The notes beneath the pieces were generated by a model. It was given only the letters and a program-made list of their open reading frames with translations, had not been told where the DNA came from and searched no databases. Of a stretch of 64,000 nucleotides of DNA, positions 8,640 through 31,289 are shown piece after piece; within the stretch, counting starts at the first letter, position 1; each line of letters begins with the position of its first letter. The DNA comes from an uncultured Dehalococcoidia bacterium (GTDB lineage: Bacteria > Chloroflexota > Dehalococcoidia > Lucifugimonadales > UBA3495). The translations under genes and the position numbers were made by a program. The DNA lies in contig OX638345.1 in assembly GCA_951813535.1 (NCBI GenBank), forward strand, positions 3,028,608-3,092,607, read 5' to 3'.

Positions 8640-9164
8640 ATGACGCAACGGCGTTCGGACTACCCTTTCGGTCTCGACGTGCGGGTGCGCTGGCAGGAGT
8701 GCGACGCGCAGGGCATAGCTTTCAACGGCAGCTACCTGGGCTGGTTGGAAATCGCCCAGGCGGAGTATTTCCGCAACCTGGGGTTCAGCATCTACCGCGT
8801 CGCGGCCGCGGGCTATTTCGATAGCGCGGTCGCCAAGGTCACCATCGAGTACAAGGCGCCGGTCCGGGTGGACGAAATGCTGGACCTTCGAGCCAGGGTC
8901 GCTCGCATCGGCAACACCAGCCTGGCGTTGGAAGTCGCCATCTTCGCGGAGGGAGGAGCCCCCGACGACGCTCCGCTCACGACCATTGAGGCCATATACG
9001 TGGGATTCTACGCGGACACCGGGCGGACCAGGCGGGTTCCCGATTCGATCCGCGAATTGGTGGAAAGTTGGGAATCGGCCGGCGCAGTCCTGCCCCTGGC
9101 TACATTCCCGGAACTGGCGGCAGCGCAATCCGGCAGCGTCGAACCTGCGGCTCCGACGAACTGA
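8640..9164 (+). CDS. Acyl-CoA thioesterase, 4HBT/YbgC-like hotdog fold
   Basis: VRVRWQECDAQGIAFNGSYLGWLEIAQAEYFRNLG is the typical hotdog thioesterase N-terminus. Confidence 0.7.
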   Translation: MTQRRSDYPFGLDVRVRWQECDAQGIAFNGSYLGWLEIAQAEYFRNLGFSIYRVAAAGYFDSAVAKVTIEYKAPVRVDEMLDLRARVARIGNTSLALEVAIFAEGGAPDDAPLTTIEAIYVGFYADTGRTRRVPDSIRELVESWESAGAVLPLATFPELAAAQSGSVEPAAPTN

Positions 9165-9175
9165 GCTGCGGCTTT

Positions 9176-10105
9176 CTATACCATGAATACCGGGGAGTCG
9201 TCCCGGTTGATCCGGGTCTCCGCCGCAATGCCATCCCGAATATGCCTGGGCAGGGCGAACATGGCTTCGTGGCTCCGCCCATCGTAGTGTCGCAGCGGCT
9301 GGGTTACCCTTTCTCCCAGACGCCGGTCCACCTCGGAGGCAGGCAACTCTGGCAGGGGAGAGTCGGACGCGACGGTAAATCCCCAAAGCGTGATGAAGGA
9401 GGGAACGTGAACCTGGTACGGCGCGGTGTGGCTGAAAATGCTTTCCAGCGTCTTGTAGATCGTCGTGAAACACTCGTGCAAGCTCAGAAATCCTGCCGGC
9501 CCTGATTGCGTCACCAGGATCCCGCCGGGATTCAACCGCGCGCGTGCGATTTCGTAGTATTCCTCGGTATAGAGGAGGTAAGCAGGGCCGCCCTCCAAGG
9601 GGTCGACCAGGTCCATGATCATCACGTCGAAGGACTGGTCGGTGGACTGGAGATACCCGCGAGCATCGTCGAAAACCAATTCGGTTCGCGTGTCGTCAAA
9701 TGCGCCTCCATGATGCTGCGGCAGGTGCTCTCTGCACAGAGCGACCACCTGCCGGTCGAGGTCGACCATGACCGCCTTTTCCACTGAGTGGTGCGCCAGG
9801 GTCTCCCGCAATGTCCCGCCTTCGCCTCCGCCACCGATAAAGACCCGCCGCGGATCGGGATGCAAAAGCATGGCGGGATGAACCAGGGTCTCGTGGTAAA
9901 TATGCTCGTCCCGCTCGGTTGACTGGGTCTTGCCGTCCAGGAGCAGGCTGCGCCCGTACACCTCGGAATGCACCACCTCCACCCGCTGGTATCCCGTGTG
10001 ACCCGAATAGAGGACCTCGTCAACCTTGAGCATGATCGCCAGGTCGGGCATCACGGTCTCGATCACCCACTTGCCGGTGATCTCTTCCATTGGGTAGCTG
10101 GCCAT
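9176..10105 (-). CDS. speE: Spermidine synthase (polyamine aminopropyltransferase)
   Basis: GYQRVEVVHSEVYGRSLLLDGKTQSTERDEHIYHETLVHPAML..VFIGGGGEGGTLRE. Start set at ATG 10105, preceded by GAAGGAG. The longer ORF from GTG 10186 has no SD. Confidence 0.9.
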   Translation of the reverse strand: MASYPMEEITGKWVIETVMPDLAIMLKVDEVLYSGHTGYQRVEVVHSEVYGRSLLLDGKTQSTERDEHIYHETLVHPAMLLHPDPRRVFIGGGGEGGTLRETLAHHSVEKAVMVDLDRQVVALCREHLPQHHGGAFDDTRTELVFDDARGYLQSTDQSFDVMIMDLVDPLEGGPAYLLYTEEYYEIARARLNPGGILVTQSGPAGFLSLHECFTTIYKTLESIFSHTAPYQVHVPSFITLWGFTVASDSPLPELPASEVDRRLGERVTQPLRHYDGRSHEAMFALPRHIRDGIAAETRINRDDSPVFMV

Positions 10106-10204
10106 CGGGGCTCCTTCGACAAAATGCGGCCTGAGTGGAGCAGACGGCCTCGACTCAAGCGGCCGGAAAACCGACCGTCGCTTCACTTGGAGTGCGAGCC
10201 GGCG

Positions 10205-10594
10205 TCAGTTCAGGTGGTGCGCCGGTTGTAGTTCCACAACGTGCGCGCCGGTGAGCCCGCGGCGGATCTGTGTGATCTCAGGATCCCGGCAACGCAGCGC
10301 TTCAATTATCACCGCCGCTGCGCGTTCCGGCATGGTTTGGTCACCGCAGGTGAAGATGTCCGCCGCCGCGTAGCCATGCTCCGGCCAGGTATGGATGGAA
10401 ATGTGGGATTCGGCGATGGACAGAATGCCCGTTACGCCCTGAGGCGTAAATTGATGAAACGACTCCCCGACCACATGGGATTCTACCGATGCCGCCGCCC
10501 GTAACATCTCCTGCCGGATATGGGCCAAGTCGTCGAGCAGACGGGGGTCGCAATCTCTAAGTTCCAGGAGCACGTGCGTACCTAGTACATCCAA
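10205..10594 (-). CDS. speH: S-adenosylmethionine decarboxylase proenzyme (small bacterial/archaeal type)
   Basis: LGTHVLLELRDCD..GVTGILSIAESHISIHTWPEHGYAAADIFTCG includes the ES|H self-cleavage site. TTG start at 10594 after GGAGGAAAGG. Confidence 0.9.
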   Translation of the reverse strand: MDVLGTHVLLELRDCDPRLLDDLAHIRQEMLRAAASVESHVVGESFHQFTPQGVTGILSIAESHISIHTWPEHGYAAADIFTCGDQTMPERAAAVIIEALRCRDPEITQIRRGLTGAHVVELQPAHHLN

Positions 10595-10669
10595 TCACCC
10601 TTTCCTCCGTGTGGATTGGCTCCCCCGGCCGGGCGGAGCCCGCACGATCCTTGGGAACAGCAGGCGACG

Positions 10670-10698
10670 ATTTTACCCAATACGGCCCGCCGATACAA
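10670..10698 (-). promoter_or_regulatory. Candidate promoter of speH-speE
   Basis: Minus strand reads TTGTAT-17 nt-TAAAAT, about 75 nt upstream of TTG 10594. Confidence 0.35.
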
Positions 10699-10889
10699 GT
10701 ATAAACTCTTCAGCCCGGATGCGCCCGAGACCTCCCGGTTTCCTAGATGCGGGCGTAGCGCGTCCTTCCCCGCCATCCACGCCCTGATCGGCGACGCTGA
10801 ACACCCTTTTGCCGACGGGTGTCATCGGCGACCCGATGCAGCGGGCTTCGACGGTCGCCGCCCGTCGCCGGAAGTACGTGGCGGTCAAC

Positions 10890-10918
10890 TTGACCCCCCA
10901 TTTGCCCTGTGCTTTACT
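10890..10918 (+). promoter_or_regulatory. Candidate promoter of the LLM-led five-gene cluster
   Basis: TTGACC-17 nt-TTTACT, about 60 nt upstream of ATG 10979. Confidence 0.35.
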
Positions 10919-10978
10919 TTCCCAGCGGTCGCGCCGGATGCGAGCCGGTAGGCTGCGAACGTCCCCAGAGGATAGCCC

Positions 10979-12028
10979 ATGCATTTCGGCATGTTCATGC
11001 AGTTTGAAACGCGCCCGGGAGGCAGCCAGGCCGCGGCTTTCGCCGAGGGTTTCGAACTGGTGGATGCTGCCGAAGAATGCGGTCTCGACGGAGCCTGGCT
11101 GGCGGAAATGCATTTCACGCCTGACCGGTCGGTGCTCTCGTCTCCGATAACGATTGCCAGCAGCATCGCGACGCGAACGCGGCGCCTGCGCATCGGCATG
11201 GCGGTCTACGTCCTGCCCCTGAACAACCCCCTGCGGATCGCCGAGGAAGTCGCCACCGTCGACCAGATCAGCGAAGGACGGTTCGACTTCGGCATCGGCC
11301 GCAGCGGGTTTGCCCGCTCGTACGACATTTACGGCGTGCCCTACGACGAGAGCCGCGACCGCTTCCGCGAGGCCCTGGACATCATCCTGCAGGCCTGGGA
11401 GGGCGAGCCCTTTTCCTACGACGGCAGCTTCTATCAGGTGACCGACGCCACGGTGGCGCCCCTGCCCTACCAGCGTCCCCATCCGCCTTTCCGTATGGCC
11501 GCCACCACTGCCGAGACTTTCCCGCGCGCCGGAACCGACGGCTACCCAATTTTCGTCGGCCTGCGCGGCATGGACATTCCCGAACTTCGGGACAACCTCA
11601 AAGCATACCGGGCTGCGTGGAAGGCGGCCGGACATCCTGGCCAGGGAGACGTTTCTCTGCGCGTGCCGGTCTACGTTGGCCTGAGCGAAACCGGCGCCGT
11701 GGAAGAGCCCTTCGAAAGCATCCAGGCCTATTTTGGCCGCATGGGCCGCCTCTACGCCGCCGATTCCGGCTCGGCCGGCATCCAGTCGACGGAGTTGCGT
11801 GACCAACGCGGCGCCCGCCTTTCCGCTCTGTCATACGATGACATCCTTGCCACCAAGGTGGCATTTGGCACGCCCGACGGCCTGGTCGACCGTTTTACCC
11901 AACTGCGAGAAGAACTCGGGCTGGATGGCGTGGTAGCGGAGCTCAACGCCGGCGGGCTGATCCCTCACGACGTCATTGTACGCAACATCCGCCTGCTGAC
12001 CGAGAAGGTCATGCCGGCGTTCAAGTGA
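10979..12028 (+). CDS. LLM-class (luciferase-like) flavin-dependent oxidoreductase
   Basis: MHFGMFMQFE..AEECGLDGAWLAEMHF..RLRIGMAVYVLPLNNPLRIAEEVATVDQISEGRFDFGIG is the typical LLM pattern. Confidence 0.85.
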   Translation: MHFGMFMQFETRPGGSQAAAFAEGFELVDAAEECGLDGAWLAEMHFTPDRSVLSSPITIASSIATRTRRLRIGMAVYVLPLNNPLRIAEEVATVDQISEGRFDFGIGRSGFARSYDIYGVPYDESRDRFREALDIILQAWEGEPFSYDGSFYQVTDATVAPLPYQRPHPPFRMAATTAETFPRAGTDGYPIFVGLRGMDIPELRDNLKAYRAAWKAAGHPGQGDVSLRVPVYVGLSETGAVEEPFESIQAYFGRMGRLYAADSGSAGIQSTELRDQRGARLSALSYDDILATKVAFGTPDGLVDRFTQLREELGLDGVVAELNAGGLIPHDVIVRNIRLLTEKVMPAFK

Positions 12029-12068
12029 CCCTCCCCGGCGCAATCGAATTGAAGAGGTGACCGAACCC

Positions 12069-13058
12069 ATGAAAGTCGCTGTCCTCGATGACTATCAGAG
12101 CGTCGCCTCCAGTATGGCCGATTGGTCGAGCCTCCCCGACGGCACAGAGGTCGACTTCTTCAGCGATCATCTGGCCGATGAGGATGCATTGGCGGCTCGG
12201 CTGGCCGATTTTGATATCGTCATGGGCATGCGGGAACGCACCGCTTTCCCGCGCTCCCTGCTGGAACGGCTGCCCGCCCTGCGTTGCCTGATCACCACCG
12301 GAGCGCGCAACGCCTCGTTCGACATCGACGCGGCCACCGAGCTGGGAATCACCGTCTGCGGTACGCCCGGCCAGGGGGAGGGCCCCACCGAGCTGACCTG
12401 GGGTCTGATTATCGGCCTGATGCGTCGCATCTCCGAGGAGGACCGCGCCACGCGTGAACAGGGTAAATGGGGCATCCATGTGGGGTCGAGCCTGCAGGGG
12501 AAGACCCTAGCGCTGCTGGGACTCGGACATATCGGCTCGCTGGTCGCCCGCGTCGGCAACGCTTTCGATATGCGGGTCATCGCGTGGAGCCAGAACCTCA
12601 CGCCGGAGCGAGCCGCGGAGTGCCACGCCACCCTGGTCGACAGGGACACCCTGTTCGCCGAGGGCGACGTCGTTTCCGTCCACGTCCGGCTGAGCGACCG
12701 CACCCGCGGCCTGGTGGGATCCCACGAAATCGGCCTGATGAAACCGTCGGCGATCCTGGTGAACATCTCCCGTGGCCCCATCGTTGACGAAGCGGCGTTG
12801 GTTGACGCGCTCCAGCGGCACGCCATCGGTGGCGCCGCGCTGGACACCTTCGACGTGGAACCCCTGCCGGTTGACCATCCCTTCCTGACGCTGGACAACA
12901 CCCTCGTTACGCCCCACGTCGGATACGTCACCCAGGAAGGGTACCGTGCCTTCTACTCCGGCGTCGTCGAGAACATCCGGGCGTTCGCTTCCGGCGAATC
13001 GATTCGGGTCGTCAACCTCGACGTGCTCCAATCGTCCAATCTGCGCGGCCCGGCCTGA
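12069..13058 (+). CDS. D-isomer-specific 2-hydroxyacid dehydrogenase family protein
   Basis: NAD motif LGLLGLGHIGSLVARV, plus catalytic-region ILVNISRGPIVDE and TPHVGYVT. ATG 12069 follows GAAGAGG. Confidence 0.8.
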   Translation: MKVAVLDDYQSVASSMADWSSLPDGTEVDFFSDHLADEDALAARLADFDIVMGMRERTAFPRSLLERLPALRCLITTGARNASFDIDAATELGITVCGTPGQGEGPTELTWGLIIGLMRRISEEDRATREQGKWGIHVGSSLQGKTLALLGLGHIGSLVARVGNAFDMRVIAWSQNLTPERAAECHATLVDRDTLFAEGDVVSVHVRLSDRTRGLVGSHEIGLMKPSAILVNISRGPIVDEAALVDALQRHAIGGAALDTFDVEPLPVDHPFLTLDNTLVTPHVGYVTQEGYRAFYSGVVENIRAFASGESIRVVNLDVLQSSNLRGPA

Positions 13059-16583: not shown

Positions 16584-16658
16584 GCGGAAGTGGCTCAGTG
16601 GTAGAGCGTCTCCTTGCCAAGGAGAAGGTCGCGGGTTCGAATCCCGTCTTCCGCTCCA
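16584..16658 (+). tRNA. tRNA-Gly (anticodon GCC), CCA encoded
   Basis: Hand-folded cloverleaf: acceptor gcggaag/cttccgc, D arm gctc-agtggta-gagc, anticodon arm tctcc-ttGCCaa-ggaga, T arm gcggg-ttcgaat-cccgt, discriminator t, then cca. Confidence 0.93.
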
Positions 16659-25845: not shown

Positions 25846-25873
25846 TTGCCAGAGGTTATGTTGCTTGTATAAT
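25846..25873 (+). promoter_or_regulatory. Candidate sigma70-type promoter for scoAB
   Basis: TTGCCA-16 nt-TATAAT, about 80 nt upstream of ATG 25955. Confidence 0.4.
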
Positions 25874-25954: not shown

Positions 25955-26653
25955 ATGAAGAACAAGGTTTTTCCCGATTTCGACTCCGCCGTTGCCGACA
26001 TGAAAGACGGCATGACCTTTATGTCGCCCGGTTTTGGCAACGTGGGCCTGGCCCGCAATCTCCTCGCCGCGGTGCACCGGCTGGGCGTCAAGGATCTCAC
26101 CGGCATTTCCAACAACGCCGGCTCAATGGACGACCGGGTGGATGTCGGCACGTTGATCGAAGCCCGCCAGGTCAAGAAGATGATCTGTGCGTTCACCGCG
26201 CCGACGCATCCGTCTCAGATCACGCCCTTCGTGCAGATGTACAACGACGACGAGCTGGACGCAGAGCTGGTCCCCCAGGGCACCCTGGCCGAGCGCATGC
26301 GGGCCGCCGCGGCCGGCATCGGCGCTTTCTACACGCCGGCCAGCGTCGGCACCGAACTGGCTGAAGGCAAGGAGCACCGGGAAATCAACGGGCGCACCTA
26401 CGTGCTCGAGTATCCGTTGCCGGCCGATTTCGCCCTCATCCGCGCCTACCGGGCCGACACCTTTGGCAACCTTCAGTTCCGCCTGACCCAACGCAACTTC
26501 AACCCTATCATGGCCATGGCTGCCGACATCACCGTGGTCGAGGTGGAAGACAGCATCGTTGAACCTGGGGAGATCGACCCGGACTGCGTACACGTTCCTG
26601 GAATCTACGTTGATCGACTGGTAAAGATCCCGGAAGACGGGCTTTGGGACTGA
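25955..26653 (+). CDS. scoA: 3-oxoacid CoA-transferase subunit A
   Basis: MKNKVFPDFDSAVADMKDGMTFMSPGFG.. and GTLAERMRAAAAGIGAFYTP are typical of the family I CoA-transferase A subunit. Confidence 0.85.
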   Translation: MKNKVFPDFDSAVADMKDGMTFMSPGFGNVGLARNLLAAVHRLGVKDLTGISNNAGSMDDRVDVGTLIEARQVKKMICAFTAPTHPSQITPFVQMYNDDELDAELVPQGTLAERMRAAAAGIGAFYTPASVGTELAEGKEHREINGRTYVLEYPLPADFALIRAYRADTFGNLQFRLTQRNFNPIMAMAADITVVEVEDSIVEPGEIDPDCVHVPGIYVDRLVKIPEDGLWD

Positions 26654-26720: not shown

Positions 26721-27410
26721 ATGACCACTGCGGACAAGCCCCGTCTCTCTCGACAAACCATGTGTGATCGGCTGGCGATGGAATTCCAGGACGGTTGGAT
26801 CGTGAACCTCGGCGTGGGGATGCCTACGCTGTGTTCCAACTACCTGGAGTCCGAGCCCGACAAAGAGATCATTTTTCACTCCGAAAACGGAGTGATCGGA
26901 TTTGGTCCGCTGGCTCCGGCCGGGGAAGAAGACCGGCACCTGGTCAACGCCGGTGGCCAGAACGTGGTCGCCCTGCCCGGCATGGCCATAGTGCACCACG
27001 CCGATTCCTTCGGCATCATCAGGAAGGGCATGGTGGACGTGACGGTGATGGGAGCGTACGAGGTGTCCGAAAACGGCGACTTCGCCAACTGGCGCATACC
27101 GGTGCGCAAGGGCGGCGGCATCGGCGGCGCGATGGACCTGGCCGGCTGCGCCAAGCGCGTGTTCATCGCCATGGAGCACAACCAGCGCAATGGCGCGCCC
27201 CGCGTCCTCAAGCAGTGCAGCCTGCCCATAACCGCGCCGGGAGTGGTAAAGCTGCTGGCGACGGATCTAGGGCTGTTTGAAATCACCGAAGACGGCTTCG
27301 TTCTGCGCGAACACGCCCCCGGCTGGTCCCCCGAGGACATCCAGGAGCAAACCGAGGCCGAGCTGATCATCGCCGACGACCTGCGGGAGATACGGGTGCG
27401 GCCGGCGTAG
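26721..27410 (+). CDS. scoB: 3-oxoacid CoA-transferase subunit B
   Basis: IVNLGVGMP..FHSENGVIGFGP..GGAMDL (catalytic Glu in the SENG motif). Confidence 0.85.
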   Translation: MTTADKPRLSRQTMCDRLAMEFQDGWIVNLGVGMPTLCSNYLESEPDKEIIFHSENGVIGFGPLAPAGEEDRHLVNAGGQNVVALPGMAIVHHADSFGIIRKGMVDVTVMGAYEVSENGDFANWRIPVRKGGGIGGAMDLAGCAKRVFIAMEHNQRNGAPRVLKQCSLPITAPGVVKLLATDLGLFEITEDGFVLREHAPGWSPEDIQEQTEAELIIADDLREIRVRPA

Positions 27411-27424
27411 CCGCGCAGTCAACC

Positions 27425-28561
27425 ATGTACACGTCCTTCAGCATCGAAAACTTCCGCCTGTTCGACCAACTGACGGTGGACCCCCTGGCCCGCGTCAACC
27501 TGATCGCGGGCCAAAACAACGCCGGCAAGACGGCCTTGCTAGAGGCGATTTGGTTGCACTCCGGGCCGAACATTCCTGATCTAGGCATCCGGCTCGCGGG
27601 TTTTCGCGGGATCCCGACCGCGAACCCGAACAGGTTTATGCACGATCTGTTTTTTGACTTCGATCACAGCAGAGCGATAACGCTGCGAGCCAGAGGTAGT
27701 TGGAACACGCGCCCTAGGATTCTAACTGTCAAATCGCAACCTCGCGCGGAAGCGGTGATCACTACCGCCACAACTGAGCCGCCGATCATGCCTCCCAGAG
27801 GGTCACAAGAGCCGGATGTAATGACCGCTTCCGCCTCCGAGATAGTGCTCAATTACATTGATGAGCACGGCACAAGTTTCGAGTCCGCTGGATGGTGGGT
27901 CAGGTCTAACCCGCAGATGGTCAACATGGGACCTAATATCCAAATGGCGCTCGGTGGGGAAGGGATGGCTACGCGGCAAGCCAAGGTAGCGAACCATCCT
28001 TCATGCGTATTTCTTAGTGCTAGGCACCGCACCGGACCGGAAGAAGATGTCCAGCGTTTTGGAGAGGTAGAGTTAGAAGGTTACGCTGACCGGATAGTCG
28101 AAGCCTTGCAGGTCGTTGACCCAAGGATAAAACGCCTTTCGACGATTGCGACAGCGCCCATGCCAATGGTGTATGTGGACGTTGGGTTGAGTCGTTTGCT
28201 GCCCATTGGTTTTCTGGGTGACGGAATGGGCAGGTTGCTTTCCATGGCGTTGGCGTTCCACCAAGCCCGAAACGGAACCATTCTCATCGATGAGGTGGAA
28301 AACGGATTACATCACCGTACACTCGAACAGGTATGGACACGCCTCGACTGGCTGTCGCGGGAATTCAATGTGCAAGTCTTTGCAACGACGCACAGTGATG
28401 AGTGCATAGTTGCGGCAGATAATGCATTCACAACGCTTGGGTCGAACGATTTGCACCTACATCAACTCTATCGACGAACTCCTTCCGAGCCGGTAAAAGC
28501 GATGACGTACACTAAAGAAGCATTGAATACCAACGTCGCTTTTCGCTGGGAGTTGCGTTGA
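27425..28561 (+). CDS. ABC/SMC-like ATPase (AAA_15/AAA_21-type architecture), candidate defence ATPase
   Basis: Walker A NLIAGQNNAGKTALLEA at the N-terminus, then an insert of about 230 aa, then signature-like FLGDGMGRLL, Walker B GTILIDEVENGLH and H-loop VFATTHS. Confidence 0.75.
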   Translation: MYTSFSIENFRLFDQLTVDPLARVNLIAGQNNAGKTALLEAIWLHSGPNIPDLGIRLAGFRGIPTANPNRFMHDLFFDFDHSRAITLRARGSWNTRPRILTVKSQPRAEAVITTATTEPPIMPPRGSQEPDVMTASASEIVLNYIDEHGTSFESAGWWVRSNPQMVNMGPNIQMALGGEGMATRQAKVANHPSCVFLSARHRTGPEEDVQRFGEVELEGYADRIVEALQVVDPRIKRLSTIATAPMPMVYVDVGLSRLLPIGFLGDGMGRLLSMALAFHQARNGTILIDEVENGLHHRTLEQVWTRLDWLSREFNVQVFATTHSDECIVAADNAFTTLGSNDLHLHQLYRRTPSEPVKAMTYTKEALNTNVAFRWELR

Positions 28562-29220
28562 TGGTCGCCCCGCCAAGGCGGCCGGCGAATTTCCGGATCG
28601 AACAATCGCGCCTCCTGCTAGTCGAAGGCAATGATGATGCTCAGTTCTTTCGCCGAATCATCGAACGTCGCCAGAGCGAAGGGACACAGATCATCGATTT
28701 CGGCGGGAAGGATAAGTTGGGCGAGTTTTTGACAAGCGTCCTCGTCCCTCGTGTCAAGGCTACCGATATTGTCCGAATCATCGGCGTAGTAAGAGATGCC
28801 GATGAGTATCCCGACAGAGCGTTCCAAAGCGTCAGCGACTCTTTGCGACGCGCCGGATTGCCGGTCCCGAACTCACCAGCTACACCCGCTAACGGTAGTC
28901 TGGACGGGGCTGAAATTCAGATATTGATGCACATCATGCCTGACAATGTATCGACCGGTGATCTCGAAACCCTGTGCCTCACTGCCGTCCGAGACACAGT
29001 CGCCATGACTTGCGTCGACGGTTACATCGAATGCCTGCAAACGCGGGGCCAAACTGTGCAACACGAACGCAAGGCTAGGCTACACGCCTATCTGGCTTCC
29101 CATCCGGGTGACCCCACACTACAGCCTGGTCAGGCGATCGACGCAGGGATTATTCCGTGGGACAGTCCCGCCTTTGAGGCCGTCCACAGGTTCTTGGACG
29201 TGTTGGACGCCGCCTCTTAG
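28561..29220 (+). CDS. Small TOPRIM-like protein (RloB/AbiLii / DUF4276 / DUF3226 / DUF4435-like), candidate nuclease effector
   Basis: ATG overlaps the ATPase stop (TGATG). SRLLLVEGNDDAQFF supplies the conserved Glu, and IIGVVRDADEYPD about 60 aa later supplies DxD. 219 aa, lower GC. Confidence 0.6.
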   Translation: MVAPPRRPANFRIEQSRLLLVEGNDDAQFFRRIIERRQSEGTQIIDFGGKDKLGEFLTSVLVPRVKATDIVRIIGVVRDADEYPDRAFQSVSDSLRRAGLPVPNSPATPANGSLDGAEIQILMHIMPDNVSTGDLETLCLTAVRDTVAMTCVDGYIECLQTRGQTVQHERKARLHAYLASHPGDPTLQPGQAIDAGIIPWDSPAFEAVHRFLDVLDAAS

Positions 29221-29234
29221 AAACTATCTCAAAA
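29221..29234. repeat. IS left terminal inverted repeat
   Basis: AAACTATCTCAAAA is the perfect reverse complement of 30116-30129. Confidence 0.85.
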
Positions 29235-29291
29235 GGTGAACAGGCGGCGATTGAGGGGTTAGTATAAGGCAAAAGCGTGTGGAGGTGGGCT

Positions 29292-30121
29292 ATGGAGGAC
29301 GGTGCGGCATTGGCAACCATCTGGGAGGTTCCCGATCACCTTTGGGAGCAGATCCACCCGGTGATACTGGAACTGGACCCGCCCAAGCCCTCTGGCCGGA
29401 AGCGGGCCGACCCTCGGCTGATGCTCAACGGCATCATCTTCCGGCTGCGCAGCGGGTCCCAGTGGAACCACTTGCCCAGGGAATTGGGGGATGACAGCAC
29501 GATCCATCGCACCTTCCAGCGCTGGGTGGAGCGCGGGGTGTTCCAGCGCATCTGGACGGTATTGGCGGCGGACTGCGCCGAGTTGGGCGGCGTGCAGTGG
29601 GAATGGCAAGCGGCGGACTGCGCCATGGGCAAAGCGCGTTTTGGGGGGATGCGGTTGGCCCCAACCCCACGGACCGGGGCAAGGCGGGCAGCAAGCGCAG
29701 CATCCTGGTCGAAGGACAGGGCGGCCCGTTGAGCGTGGTGGTGGCCGGAGCCAACGTGCATGATACGAAGTTGTTGGCGGAAACACTGGAGCACATCGTC
29801 GCAGTGCGCCCCGCAGATTATGGAGGCGACGCCCCCAACCTGTGCCTGGACAAGGGGTACGACAATCCCACCGGTCGTAGGGCCGTTGCGGACCATGGCT
29901 ATGTTCCGCACATCCGGCGCATTGGCGAGGAGAAGCTGGCGCCCGACGGTCGGAAACGCTATCCGGCGCGACGGTGGGTGGTGGAACGAACGCTGGGCTG
30001 GCTGTCCAAGTGCCGGGGAATACTGGTGCGCTACGACAAGAAAGCATCGAACTATCTGGGGCTGCTGCAACTGGCCTGCGCATTACTCTGGTATCGCCGG
30101 CAGTGGCAACTGCTGTTTTGA
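29292..30121 (+). CDS. IS5-family DDE transposase, two frames joined by a -1 shift near 29639-29648
   Basis: Frame A reads MEDGAALATIWEVPDHLWEQI..SGSQWNHLPRE..TIHRTFQRWVERGVF..AMGKARFGG. Frame B (-1) continues DAVGPNPTDRGKAGSKRSILVEG..NVHDTKLL..LCLDKGYD..RWVVERTLGWL. The shift lies at the run TTTTGGGGGG. Confidence 0.8.
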
Positions 30122-30129
30122 GATAGTTT
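30116..30129. repeat. IS right terminal inverted repeat
   Basis: TTTTGAGATAGTTT, followed by the CTTAG duplication. Confidence 0.85.
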
Positions 30130-30161
30130 CTTAGGCACCCGGTTCACGATGGGCACTTGGA

Positions 30162-31289
30162 TTAGCGCATCACGTTGTTCAGCCCAGCGTGCCTCCCCGG
30201 ATCCAAATCCCTGCCGGCCAGCGCCGGGTGGTCGGGGCTGTAGCGGTGGCAGCGGAAGGTCGCGTTGGTGTACTCCATGCCGCCACCTCCACCCGCGGCG
30301 TCGCTGTAGAGGAAGAACGGGTTGATGTATTCCCAGACGACCTCGCTGCGGGGCGTGACCTCGAACATCCGGCCCGGCGCTCCCTCGCAGATCAGAGTGT
30401 TGCCGTTCGGCTGCCGCTCCGCGCTGCTGATGTTGTAGCTGTAGAAGGAGATAGACGGCATGCCCTGGTACTGCCAGTGGATATCGTTGGTAGTCGGGTC
30501 CACTTCCACTATGCGGGAGAAACTGGCGCCCCGCCGGTGACCGCCGTTGTCGAAGATCAGCACGCGTCCGTTGTCCAGCCAGGTGGGATGGTGCTGGTGG
30601 TAGATCTCGCCCGGTCCCCACTTCCACTTGAAGGCTCCGGTGGTCCGGTCGACGATGCCCACGGTGCTGGTGAGCCGGTAGCTGACCAGCAGGTCCCCAT
30701 CGGGCGTCACGTTCAGGCTGTTGCCGTGGGTCCATTCTCGCCGCGCCTCCAGCGGACAGATGACGTCCTCGGCGGGGTCCAGGTGCTCCCATGACCGCCA
30801 CTCCCACACGGCGGCGCCGTCCGGCGTCACTTCCCGGACCACATCGCCGAGCATGCCGGGAGCGAAATCCACATCGAATCCACCCTGAACCTGGGCCACC
30901 AGATCCGTGGGAACGGGGTCCCACATGAGCAGCAGGGTGTTTCCGTTGGGCAGCCGCTCGTAATCATGGTGGAGCGTATTGTCCCGGTAGGCCCAAACCA
31001 GGTTGCTGTCCCAGTCCAACTCGATGATGCTGGCCGACGAGCCGCCGACCGTTTCGACACCACCGGCATCCACAGGGGGCATGGTGCGGCAGAGCAGGTT
31101 ACCGTTGTCCAACAGGTAGGCGTAGTGAATGCCCTCAGGCGAATGCCAACGGTGAACCACGTTGCCTTCCATATCGATGAGGTAGGCGTCCTTGCCGCCG
31201 CGCGTGGTGGAGAAAAGCGTATAACCCCGTTGGCACGCTGCCGGAGTGTAGTGGATCAGCCCGACCGGATGGTGAATTGACCAGCCCAT
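30162..31289 (-). CDS. Arylsulfotransferase (ASST)-like beta-propeller protein
   Basis: GYTLFSTTRGGKDAYLIDMEGNVVHRWHSP..LLDNGNLL..LPNGNTLLL..WEHLD resembles the ASST_2 family. This is a call from memory of the family pattern. Confidence 0.5.
   Translation of the reverse strand: MGWSIHHPVGLIHYTPAACQRGYTLFSTTRGGKDAYLIDMEGNVVHRWHSPEGIHYAYLLDNGNLLCRTMPPVDAGGVETVGGSSASIIELDWDSNLVWAYRDNTLHHDYERLPNGNTLLLMWDPVPTDLVAQVQGGFDVDFAPGMLGDVVREVTPDGAAVWEWRSWEHLDPAEDVICPLEARREWTHGNSLNVTPDGDLLVSYRLTSTVGIVDRTTGAFKWKWGPGEIYHQHHPTWLDNGRVLIFDNGGHRRGASFSRIVEVDPTTNDIHWQYQGMPSISFYSYNISSAERQPNGNTLICEGAPGRMFEVTPRSEVVWEYINPFFLYSDAAGGGGGMEYTNATFRCHRYSPDHPALAGRDLDPGRHAGLNNVMR

Follow-up and report, generated by a model that had tools for sequence, protein, structure and literature searches.

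We examined a pair of overlapping genes in a stretch of 64,000 nucleotides (nt) from an uncultured Dehalococcoidia bacterium (SAR202, Chloroflexota; contig OX638345.1), hereafter the window. Both genes lie on the forward strand, directly downstream of the CoA-transferase gene scoB. Gene A (27425-28561) encodes an ABC-type (AAA_15/AAA_21) ATPase of 378 amino acids (aa), and gene B (28561-29220) encodes a 219-aa DUF3226 protein with a predicted OLD-like TOPRIM plus helical domain. Translation of the two genes is coupled: the stop codon of A and the ATG start codon of B (28561) share one base (TGATG at 28559-28563), an overlap that recurs in 19 of 21 syntenic loci; a mechanical list of open reading frames (ORFs) starts B at TTG 28558, one codon before this ATG. 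The spacer between scoB and A (27411-27424, forward strand, ccgcgcagtcaacc) is 14 nt long and contains neither a terminator hairpin nor a Shine-Dalgarno-like purine run. Translation confirmed the nucleotide-binding motifs of A on the forward strand, namely Walker A (GQNNAGKT, 27509-27532), the signature (LGDGMGRLL, 28214-28240), Walker B (ILIDEVENGLH, 28280-28312) and the H-loop (ATTHS, 28382-28396), as well as two motifs of B (LLLVEGNDD, 28612-28638, and DAD, 28795-28803). The GC content across A and B is 0.53-0.58, compared with 0.62-0.68 in most GC windows to either side, and GC content at third codon positions (GC3) is 0.61 and 0.63 for A and B versus 0.82 for scoB. The same offset was seen in all genomes compared (module 0.52-0.65, scoB 0.80-0.88). 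An earlier note on this DNA, made from its letters alone, had described two overlapping low-GC genes with these motifs, 14 nt from scoB and without a Shine-Dalgarno sequence, and each of these points was borne out by the sequence, the windowed GC content and the GC3 of the flanks. The note was also right that the pair lacks a helicase, HNH or retron partner; none adjoins it in this region of the window or in the related loci, where scoB lies on one side and an arylsulfotransferase-like gene (ASST) on the other.

The product of gene A belongs to the defence-type AAA_15/AAA_21 ABC ATPases and has all its catalytic motifs conserved, and the earlier assignment to the ABC/SMC-like ATPases of this type is upheld by Pfam, PADLOC and Foldseek alike. 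In Pfam, A matched AAA_15 (2.7e-18) and AAA_21 (5.2e-18). Among the PADLOC models it matched AbiLi (PDLC02336, 1.3e-54, A residues 1-374 against model positions 1-336 of 340) and PDC-M38A (PDLC04611, 2e-52, residues 1-378 against positions 1-383 of 383), with four more PDC-M38A models also matching. The Gabija, Old, Septu, PARIS, MADS and HEC models of PADLOC all fell far below these. The AriA models matched in part only (9.3e-24 over residues 205-328 and 3.2e-18 with the best stretch at residues 1-44), HEC-01A scored 9.7e-11 and mad3 2e-12, and the MAD3 model of NCBIfam reached 43 bits against a cut-off of 420. No NCBIfam model exceeded its cut-off on A. Only sub-threshold P-loop matches were found there, including weak ones to RecF, RecN and Rad50 at the N-terminus. 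A single-sequence search of the PDB with A gave no match at E up to 0.001.

An AlphaFold2 (AF2) model of A (predicted local distance difference test score, pLDDT, 81.9) shows the head of an ABC ATPase and, at approximately residues 85-197, a beta-rich insert. The best Foldseek matches of this model are PtuA, TsOLD, SMC/Rad50 heads, GajA and retron effectors. Across 68 homologs, each nucleotide-binding motif of A shows little or no variation. The insert that separates Walker A from the signature (27602-28204, forward strand, residues ~60-260) has a predicted beta-rich structure, in which residues 110-133 would form a disordered loop; per-residue conservation within it is 0.16-0.47, and the segment differs among allele families. 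We regard it as a putative sensor region.

Gene B matched the Pfam family DUF3226 (PF11536) at 2.3e-31 (109.7 bits against a gathering cut-off of 27), and residues 17-213 align to profile positions 2-204 of 208, which is the full length of the profile. The earlier note had named DUF3226 as one of four candidate families and had entertained a new branch. The match settles this in favour of DUF3226 and does not support a new branch. B matched none of the other three families, RloB (PF13707), DUF4276 and DUF4435 (PF14491), and for RloB and AbiLii there was no match in Pfam or PADLOC at E up to 1. NCBIfam returned no match to B. Four PDC-M38B models of PADLOC matched, the best being PDLC04624 (4.3e-15), with PDLC04623 at 1.2e-10. 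Other PADLOC matches were to AriB (0.0068 over the 37 residues 17-53), HEC-01B (0.052) and mad4 (0.002). All 63 aligned homologs of B match DUF3226, and 27 of the 63 also match the Pfam family OLD-like_TOPRIM (best 6.4e-8).

The AlphaFold2 model of B, built from the 63 homologs, is of high confidence (pLDDT 93.5, predicted template modelling score 0.88). Foldseek placed only TOPRIM proteins, of the OLD family or retron Eco2, among its top eight matches in the PDB (probabilities 0.95-1.0). They comprise the C-terminal regions of the Xanthomonas and Burkholderia class 2 OLD proteins (6njw, 6njv, 6njx and 6nk8), TsOLD (6p74) and retron Eco2. By sequence, a PDB search with B alone retrieved only 2p62, at a non-significant score, while a family profile search reached 2P62 at 1.1e-4. 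Profile matches and model together identify B as a DUF3226 protein with a predicted OLD-like TOPRIM plus helical fold. The earlier reading of B as a TOPRIM protein with a Glu...DxD site is thus consistent with Pfam, the model, Foldseek and the matches of the homologs.

Residue conservation was assessed in B together with 137 divergent cluster representatives (138 sequences, median identity to B 36%). Four charged residues are nearly invariant in this set, namely E22 (136 sequences), D79 (138), E136 (136) and K171 (135), and acidic residues occupy position 26 in 114 sequences and position 81 in 129. On the strength of this conservation, E22 (28624-28626), D26, D79 and D81 (28795-28803), E136 (28966-28968) and K171 (29071-29073), all on the forward strand, are putative catalytic residues. 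In the model, E22 follows strand 1, D79 and D81 lie at the end of strand 3, E136 falls in the first helix past the sheet and K171 in a later helix. The two-metal active site of BpOLD includes E400, E404, D455, D457, E508, K562 and T506 (PMC6755086). In order and spacing, the near-invariant residues of B mirror six of these seven, that is five of the six metal-site residues and the catalytic lysine. E22, D26, D79, D81, E136 and K171 would parallel E400, E404, D455, D457, E508 and K562, respectively, and no counterpart of T506 was identified in B. The set also revealed cysteines of a kind that has not been described for OLD nucleases. C151 and C158 (29011-29013 and 29032-29034) are invariant in all 138 sequences and lie seven residues apart on one predicted helix, and C139 (28975-28977) is conserved in 122 of the 138 DUF3226 sequences. 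These three cysteines may constitute a structural metal or redox site.

The family to which B belongs is large. In an exhaustive search with the DUF3226-family profile, 7,099 clusters of 50% identity had E-values of 1e-3 or lower, and 1,503 reached 1e-30. The best 150 clusters listed are mostly stand-alone proteins of ~200-220 aa. Longer proteins occur as well: P0264 (443 aa) and P0266, P0267 and P0275 (253-273 aa) carry two matched stretches or N-terminal extensions, and could be tandem or fused forms, or artefacts of gene calling. The gene directly upstream of the DUF3226 gene encodes an AAA_15/21 ATPase of 348-380 aa in all the contexts that we examined, and this pairing holds in homologs of 36-37% identity located in unrelated neighbourhoods. 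A literature search for PDC-M38 or DUF3226 found no papers in the library searched.

The strongest evidence came from comparing genomes. We surveyed the position of the pair in 48 species-representative genomes whose ScoB is at least 90% identical to that of the window. The slot is bounded on the left by scoA (25955-26653) and scoB (26721-27410), forward-strand genes for CoA-transferase subunits (Pfam CoA_trans, 1e-35), and on the right by the reverse-strand ASST gene (30162-31289; Pfam Arylsulfotrans, 8.8e-25), which is convergent with B. Both flanks are conserved, and what lies between them is variable. The A+B module (T1, forward strand) occupies the slot in 19 of the 48 genomes. In another 19 it holds an unrelated, HEC-01-like pair (T2) that is encoded on the opposite strand; one of these 19 has no detectable gene for the small protein. 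One genome carries a type II restriction-modification (RM) system there (L028, 8752-10808; restriction endonuclease 8.7e-138, N6_N4 methyltransferase 1.2e-117). One has nothing before ASST (L059, scoB-ASST distance 167 nt), seven have no such module, and in the last the contig ends at this point. On a neighbour-joining tree of four flanking genes the occupants alternate between sister species (L026/L029, L010/L014, L016/L017 and L012/L013), which makes the slot a defence hotspot. The presence or absence of the pair between scoB and ASST had been proposed as a test of whether it is accessory. Slot occupancy and alternation refute a core gene pair syntenic in all relatives and support an accessory role in defence; the note was right to call the pair accessory.

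The T2 pair consists of a 425-aa AAA_21 ATPase (HEC-01A 2.8e-41, mad3 1.9e-32) and a protein of ~210-250 aa that has only weak similarity to HEC-01B/mad4 and no Pfam match. It is likewise low in GC3 (L013, L014, L017, L029 and others; ~8690-10700, equivalent to window positions 27411-30161). T1 and T2 were considered as alleles of one system and rejected as such, since B and the T2 small protein have no detectable homology (hhalign probability 0.5%) and the two ATPases have only their nucleotide-binding motifs in common. Decayed copies of both types were observed. In L091 (7143-7809), a contig variant with transposases nearby, B is split into fragments of 124 and 95 aa; in L051 (9909-10737) the T1 locus has a 141-nt gap between A and a poorly matching B; and in L048 (9386-12827) the T2 ATPase is broken by transposase genes. 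In L090, a SacI-type restriction enzyme and a D12 methyltransferase (10561-12527) lie ~3 kb downstream of an A of 73% identity that follows scoB, so that more than one defence system has gathered in that neighbourhood. Some of these SAR202 relatives appear to be sponge-associated, to judge from isolate names.

The module is far more divergent than the genes around it. Amino-acid identities to the window in related genomes are 94-99% for ScoA and ScoB and 90-95% for ASST (closest relatives), and those of the syntenic alleles are 39-66% for A and 33-76% for B. At the nucleotide level, identity stands at ~0.9 in scoB and over roughly the first 100 nt of A, falls to 0.35-0.55 in the insert of A, is 0.6-0.8 in the 3' end of A and in B, and returns to ~0.9 in ASST (flanks 0.85-0.95). 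The first ~35 codons of A (27425-27530) retain ~90% nucleotide identity across all T1 alleles, with a varying 14-nt spacer upstream. Beyond them A has diverged to saturation among these alleles, which suggests a recombination breakpoint inside A just past Walker A. The two genes also have mosaic histories; L011 and L015 are 66% identical to the window in A and 57% in B, and L009 and L012 are 47-48% identical in A and 74-76% in B. The A allele of the window has higher identity to many non-syntenic homologs (50-89%) than it has to sister-species alleles.

Within allele families the ratio of nonsynonymous to synonymous substitution rates (dN/dS) lies between 0.05 and 0.15 for A; for B it lies between 0.11 and 0.25, apart from one near-identical pair at 0.64. 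Synonymous divergence (dS) of B is 0.9-1.5 compared with 0.3-0.6 for scoB in the same genome pairs. Both A and B are under purifying selection. Pervasive diversifying selection on A was considered and is ruled out by these ratios, and the diversity therefore derives from discrete allele families and mosaics of them, not from continuous hypervariation. The pattern of alleles is one of recombinational exchange of discrete families, as opposed to hypermutation in place.

The region downstream of scoB was folded directly in each genome as a survey of terminators. Where the slot holds T2, another occupant or none, most genomes have a strong GC-rich hairpin (-13 to -31 kcal/mol) behind scoB, and a U-run often accompanies it. 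Of the 19 T1 genomes, 17 lack a hairpin at this point, and their A starts 14-19 nt downstream of scoB. The other two, L045 and L051, differ from these in having 94-96 nt between scoB and A and a retained strong hairpin (-27 and -20 kcal/mol), so that the module there may need a promoter of its own. No promoter-like site was found between scoB and A in the window. The only strong one nearby lies upstream of scoA (TTGCCA-16-TATAAT, 11 of 12 positions, 25846-25873, forward strand). In total, the region has no more promoter-like sites than shuffled sequence would lead one to expect. Given the missing hairpin, the short distance from scoB to A and this single strong promoter-like site, A and B are most likely expressed by read-through from scoAB, starting at the likely promoter upstream of scoA.

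Taken together, we consider it likely that A and B form a two-gene anti-phage or anti-mobile-element module of an ABC ATPase and an OLD-like TOPRIM nuclease, in effect a split OLD nuclease, and that this module is the equivalent of PDC-M38. By analogy with PARIS and AbiL, the pair would most likely act in defence of the abortive-infection type, with a nuclease gated by the ATPase. If A and B behave like AriA and AriB of PARIS, or like the corresponding parts of OLD, A would bind B and keep it inactive. The variable beta-rich insert of A may sense a phage-derived trigger or a perturbation induced by infection; ATP binding or hydrolysis would then free or activate B, and the two-metal TOPRIM site of B would cut nucleic acid, either host tRNA or DNA, whereby the infection would be aborted.

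Several observations weigh against this interpretation. We infer the physical interaction of A with B, the trigger and the nuclease substrate by analogy. B itself scores 20.8 bits (5.8e-4) against OLD-like_TOPRIM, below the cut-off of 23.2, and its Foldseek matches have modest E-values (1e-3 to 2e-2) and template modelling scores of 0.36-0.50. The correspondence with BpOLD was drawn from residue order, spacing and predicted secondary structure, without superposition. A tblastn search with B against phage and plasmid collections gave no match and thus did not link it directly to mobile elements. Beside the pair, the window has no further recognised defence gene, which weakens the case from guilt by association, although embedded or solo candidates typically occur in such a setting. 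PDC-M38, too, has only candidate status, having been predicted by guilt-by-embedding from RefSeq genomes, and HEC-01, a related system, failed to protect in the single test published (bioRxiv 10.1101/2024.01.29.577857).

The alternative that survives best is that the pair is a selfish addiction module resembling toxin-antitoxin (TA) systems, in which B would be a toxic nuclease and A its ATPase antitoxin, and in which the pair would persist because losing it is lethal, without playing any part in defence against viruses. PARIS formally acts as a type II TA pair (review PMC13064643), and tight gene coupling, a patchy distribution with swapping of alleles and the solo position of the pair among housekeeping genes would all suit such a module. 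However, the slot alternates with a bona fide RM system and with another defence-candidate pair, a pattern more to be expected of a defence hotspot than of an addiction locus that has become stabilised, and the family matches PADLOC models that derive from defence systems. We therefore regard addiction without defence as unlikely, while noting that the addiction and defence readings are not mutually exclusive.

A second alternative is a housekeeping pair for DNA repair or nucleic-acid processing, RecF/Rad50-like with a TOPRIM partner, that belongs to the scoAB operon as part of the lineage core. The close spacing behind scoB without a terminator in 17 of the 19 T1 genomes speaks for this reading, as does a position that is kept in many species. 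The weak N-terminal matches of A to RecF, RecN and Rad50 and the SMC/Rad50 heads among its Foldseek matches also lean this way. However, those sequence matches cover the Walker A region only and lie far under their cut-offs, and the GC3 of the module is far below that of core genes. Furthermore, distant homologous pairs sit in unrelated neighbourhoods, and close species without the module have the other pair (19 of 48), an RM system (1) or an empty slot (1) in its place, with occupants that differ between sisters. This pattern of presence and absence largely refutes the housekeeping reading, to which we assign a very low probability.

To the right of the pair lies an insertion sequence (IS) of the IS5 family (29220-30130, forward strand; Pfam DUF4096 6.3e-23, DDE_Tnp_1 3.7e-17). 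It is bounded by perfect 15-bp inverted repeats (GAAACTATCTCAAAA, 29220-29234 and 30116-30130), of which the 64-kb window holds only these two copies and thus a single IS, and by a TTA target duplication (29217-29219, overlapping the stop codon of B, and 30131-33). Its two transposase ORFs (29277-29732 and 29597-30121) overlap, which suggests frameshift-dependent expression. The first base of the IS (29220) is the last base of the TAG stop codon of B, and the earlier statement that the pair ends exactly at this element is correct. An in-frame TAG was kept despite the insertion on the stop codon, so that the ORF of B is intact, and excision of the IS in silico restores ...TCT TAG G... No insert of IS length was found at this position in any related locus, including those of the 19 related species with the module, and the spacing between B and ASST in relatives (~29 nt) equals that of the window once the IS is taken out. 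The IS is strain-specific and no part of the module. Accordingly, the description of the pair as IS-flanked does not hold, there being one IS on one side only, absent from all 19 module-bearing relatives. A composite transposon was also considered and is ruled out by the lone IS copy. That the module is cargo moving with the IS, as its exact abutment on the stop codon of B and the low GC of the pair might hint, is the least probable of the alternatives and hardly credible, since the IS is a single, one-sided copy whose own 3-bp target duplication marks a simple insertion and which related module loci lack at otherwise matching B-ASST spacing. The only tRNA gene in the window, a tRNA-Gly(GCC) at 16584-16658, does not adjoin the module, and there is therefore no sign of tRNA-targeted integration.

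Returning to defence by a split OLD nuclease, a broader joint proposal can be made, which we put forward tentatively and rate as less probable than its opposite. Here, the module would belong to a family of ~7,100 clusters (50% identity) whose effector bears family-specific cysteines (C151/C158 and C139) beside the two-metal site, and the beta-rich insert of the ATPase would be an exchangeable specificity cassette. In SAR202, the module would have captured the scoAB transcript by replacing its terminator, so that immunity is co-expressed with a catabolic operon. If validated, DUF3226 proteins (~7,100 clusters at 50% identity) and their partner ATPases would become a working class of split OLD-type immunity. 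The SAR202 slot is a clean natural experiment, with matched genomes in which to follow the turnover of defence in an uncultured marine lineage. Taken by itself, the result overturns nothing. It bears out, in a new lineage, a bioinformatic prediction that already existed, and the most interesting additions to that prediction are the hotspot of alternating occupants and the terminator-replacing fusion to scoAB.

Among known systems, HEC-01 and MADS3-4 do not provide the best matches, since A and B match HEC-01A/B and mad3/mad4 only weakly. PH0156 of Pyrococcus horikoshii (PDB 2P62) is a solved DUF3226 structure and the sole sequence relative of B in the PDB, and its VEG...D and RDxDE motifs align with those of B; however, it is a very distant archaeal protein outside the top 50 Foldseek matches of B. 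The OLD proteins of class 1 (P2 Old, TsOLD) and class 2 (BpOLD, XccOLD, GajA) provide the best structural matches of B and are among the best of A, and B has the same pattern of active-site residues. OLD proteins, however, carry ATPase and TOPRIM on a single polypeptide, whereas here each has its own ORF, and the UvrD-like helicase (GajB) that partners class 2 OLD in Gabija is not present beside A and B.

PARIS (AriA/AriB, class 4 OLD-like) shares the split of ABC ATPase and TOPRIM nuclease. In that system the ATPase scaffold sequesters the nuclease until a phage trigger frees it to cleave tRNA (PMC11464382). B differs in not being a DUF4435 protein (no PF14491 match) and in its size (219 aa, compared with 35 kDa for AriB), and the insert of the 378-aa A is predicted to be beta-rich whereas the insertions of AriA are helical coiled coils (IS1 and IS2, forming a hexameric scaffold). 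AbiL/RloAB (AbiLi/AbiLii of Lactococcus) is likewise a two-gene system of an ABC ATPase and an OLD-like TOPRIM effector, with AbiLii predicted to resemble the OLD structure 6NJV (PMC13064643). A is of the AbiLi type; B, in contrast, is DUF3226 and matches neither AbiLii nor RloB (PF13707). In architecture, A and B are closest to AbiL and PARIS.

Payne et al. (bioRxiv 10.1101/2024.01.29.577857) used guilt-by-embedding to derive the 145 phage defence candidates that entered PADLOC as the PDC systems. Both proteins of the window match the PDC-M38 models, gene order and adjacency agree, and there is no structural difference between PDC-M38 and A+B; the SAR202 copies differ in standing alone and not embedded in BREX, DISARM or RM systems. 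The earlier note was therefore mistaken in calling the system undescribed, as the pair matches both PDC-M38 models, and right in kind in placing it with the OLD/PARIS/AbiL-type superfamily of ATPase and TOPRIM proteins.

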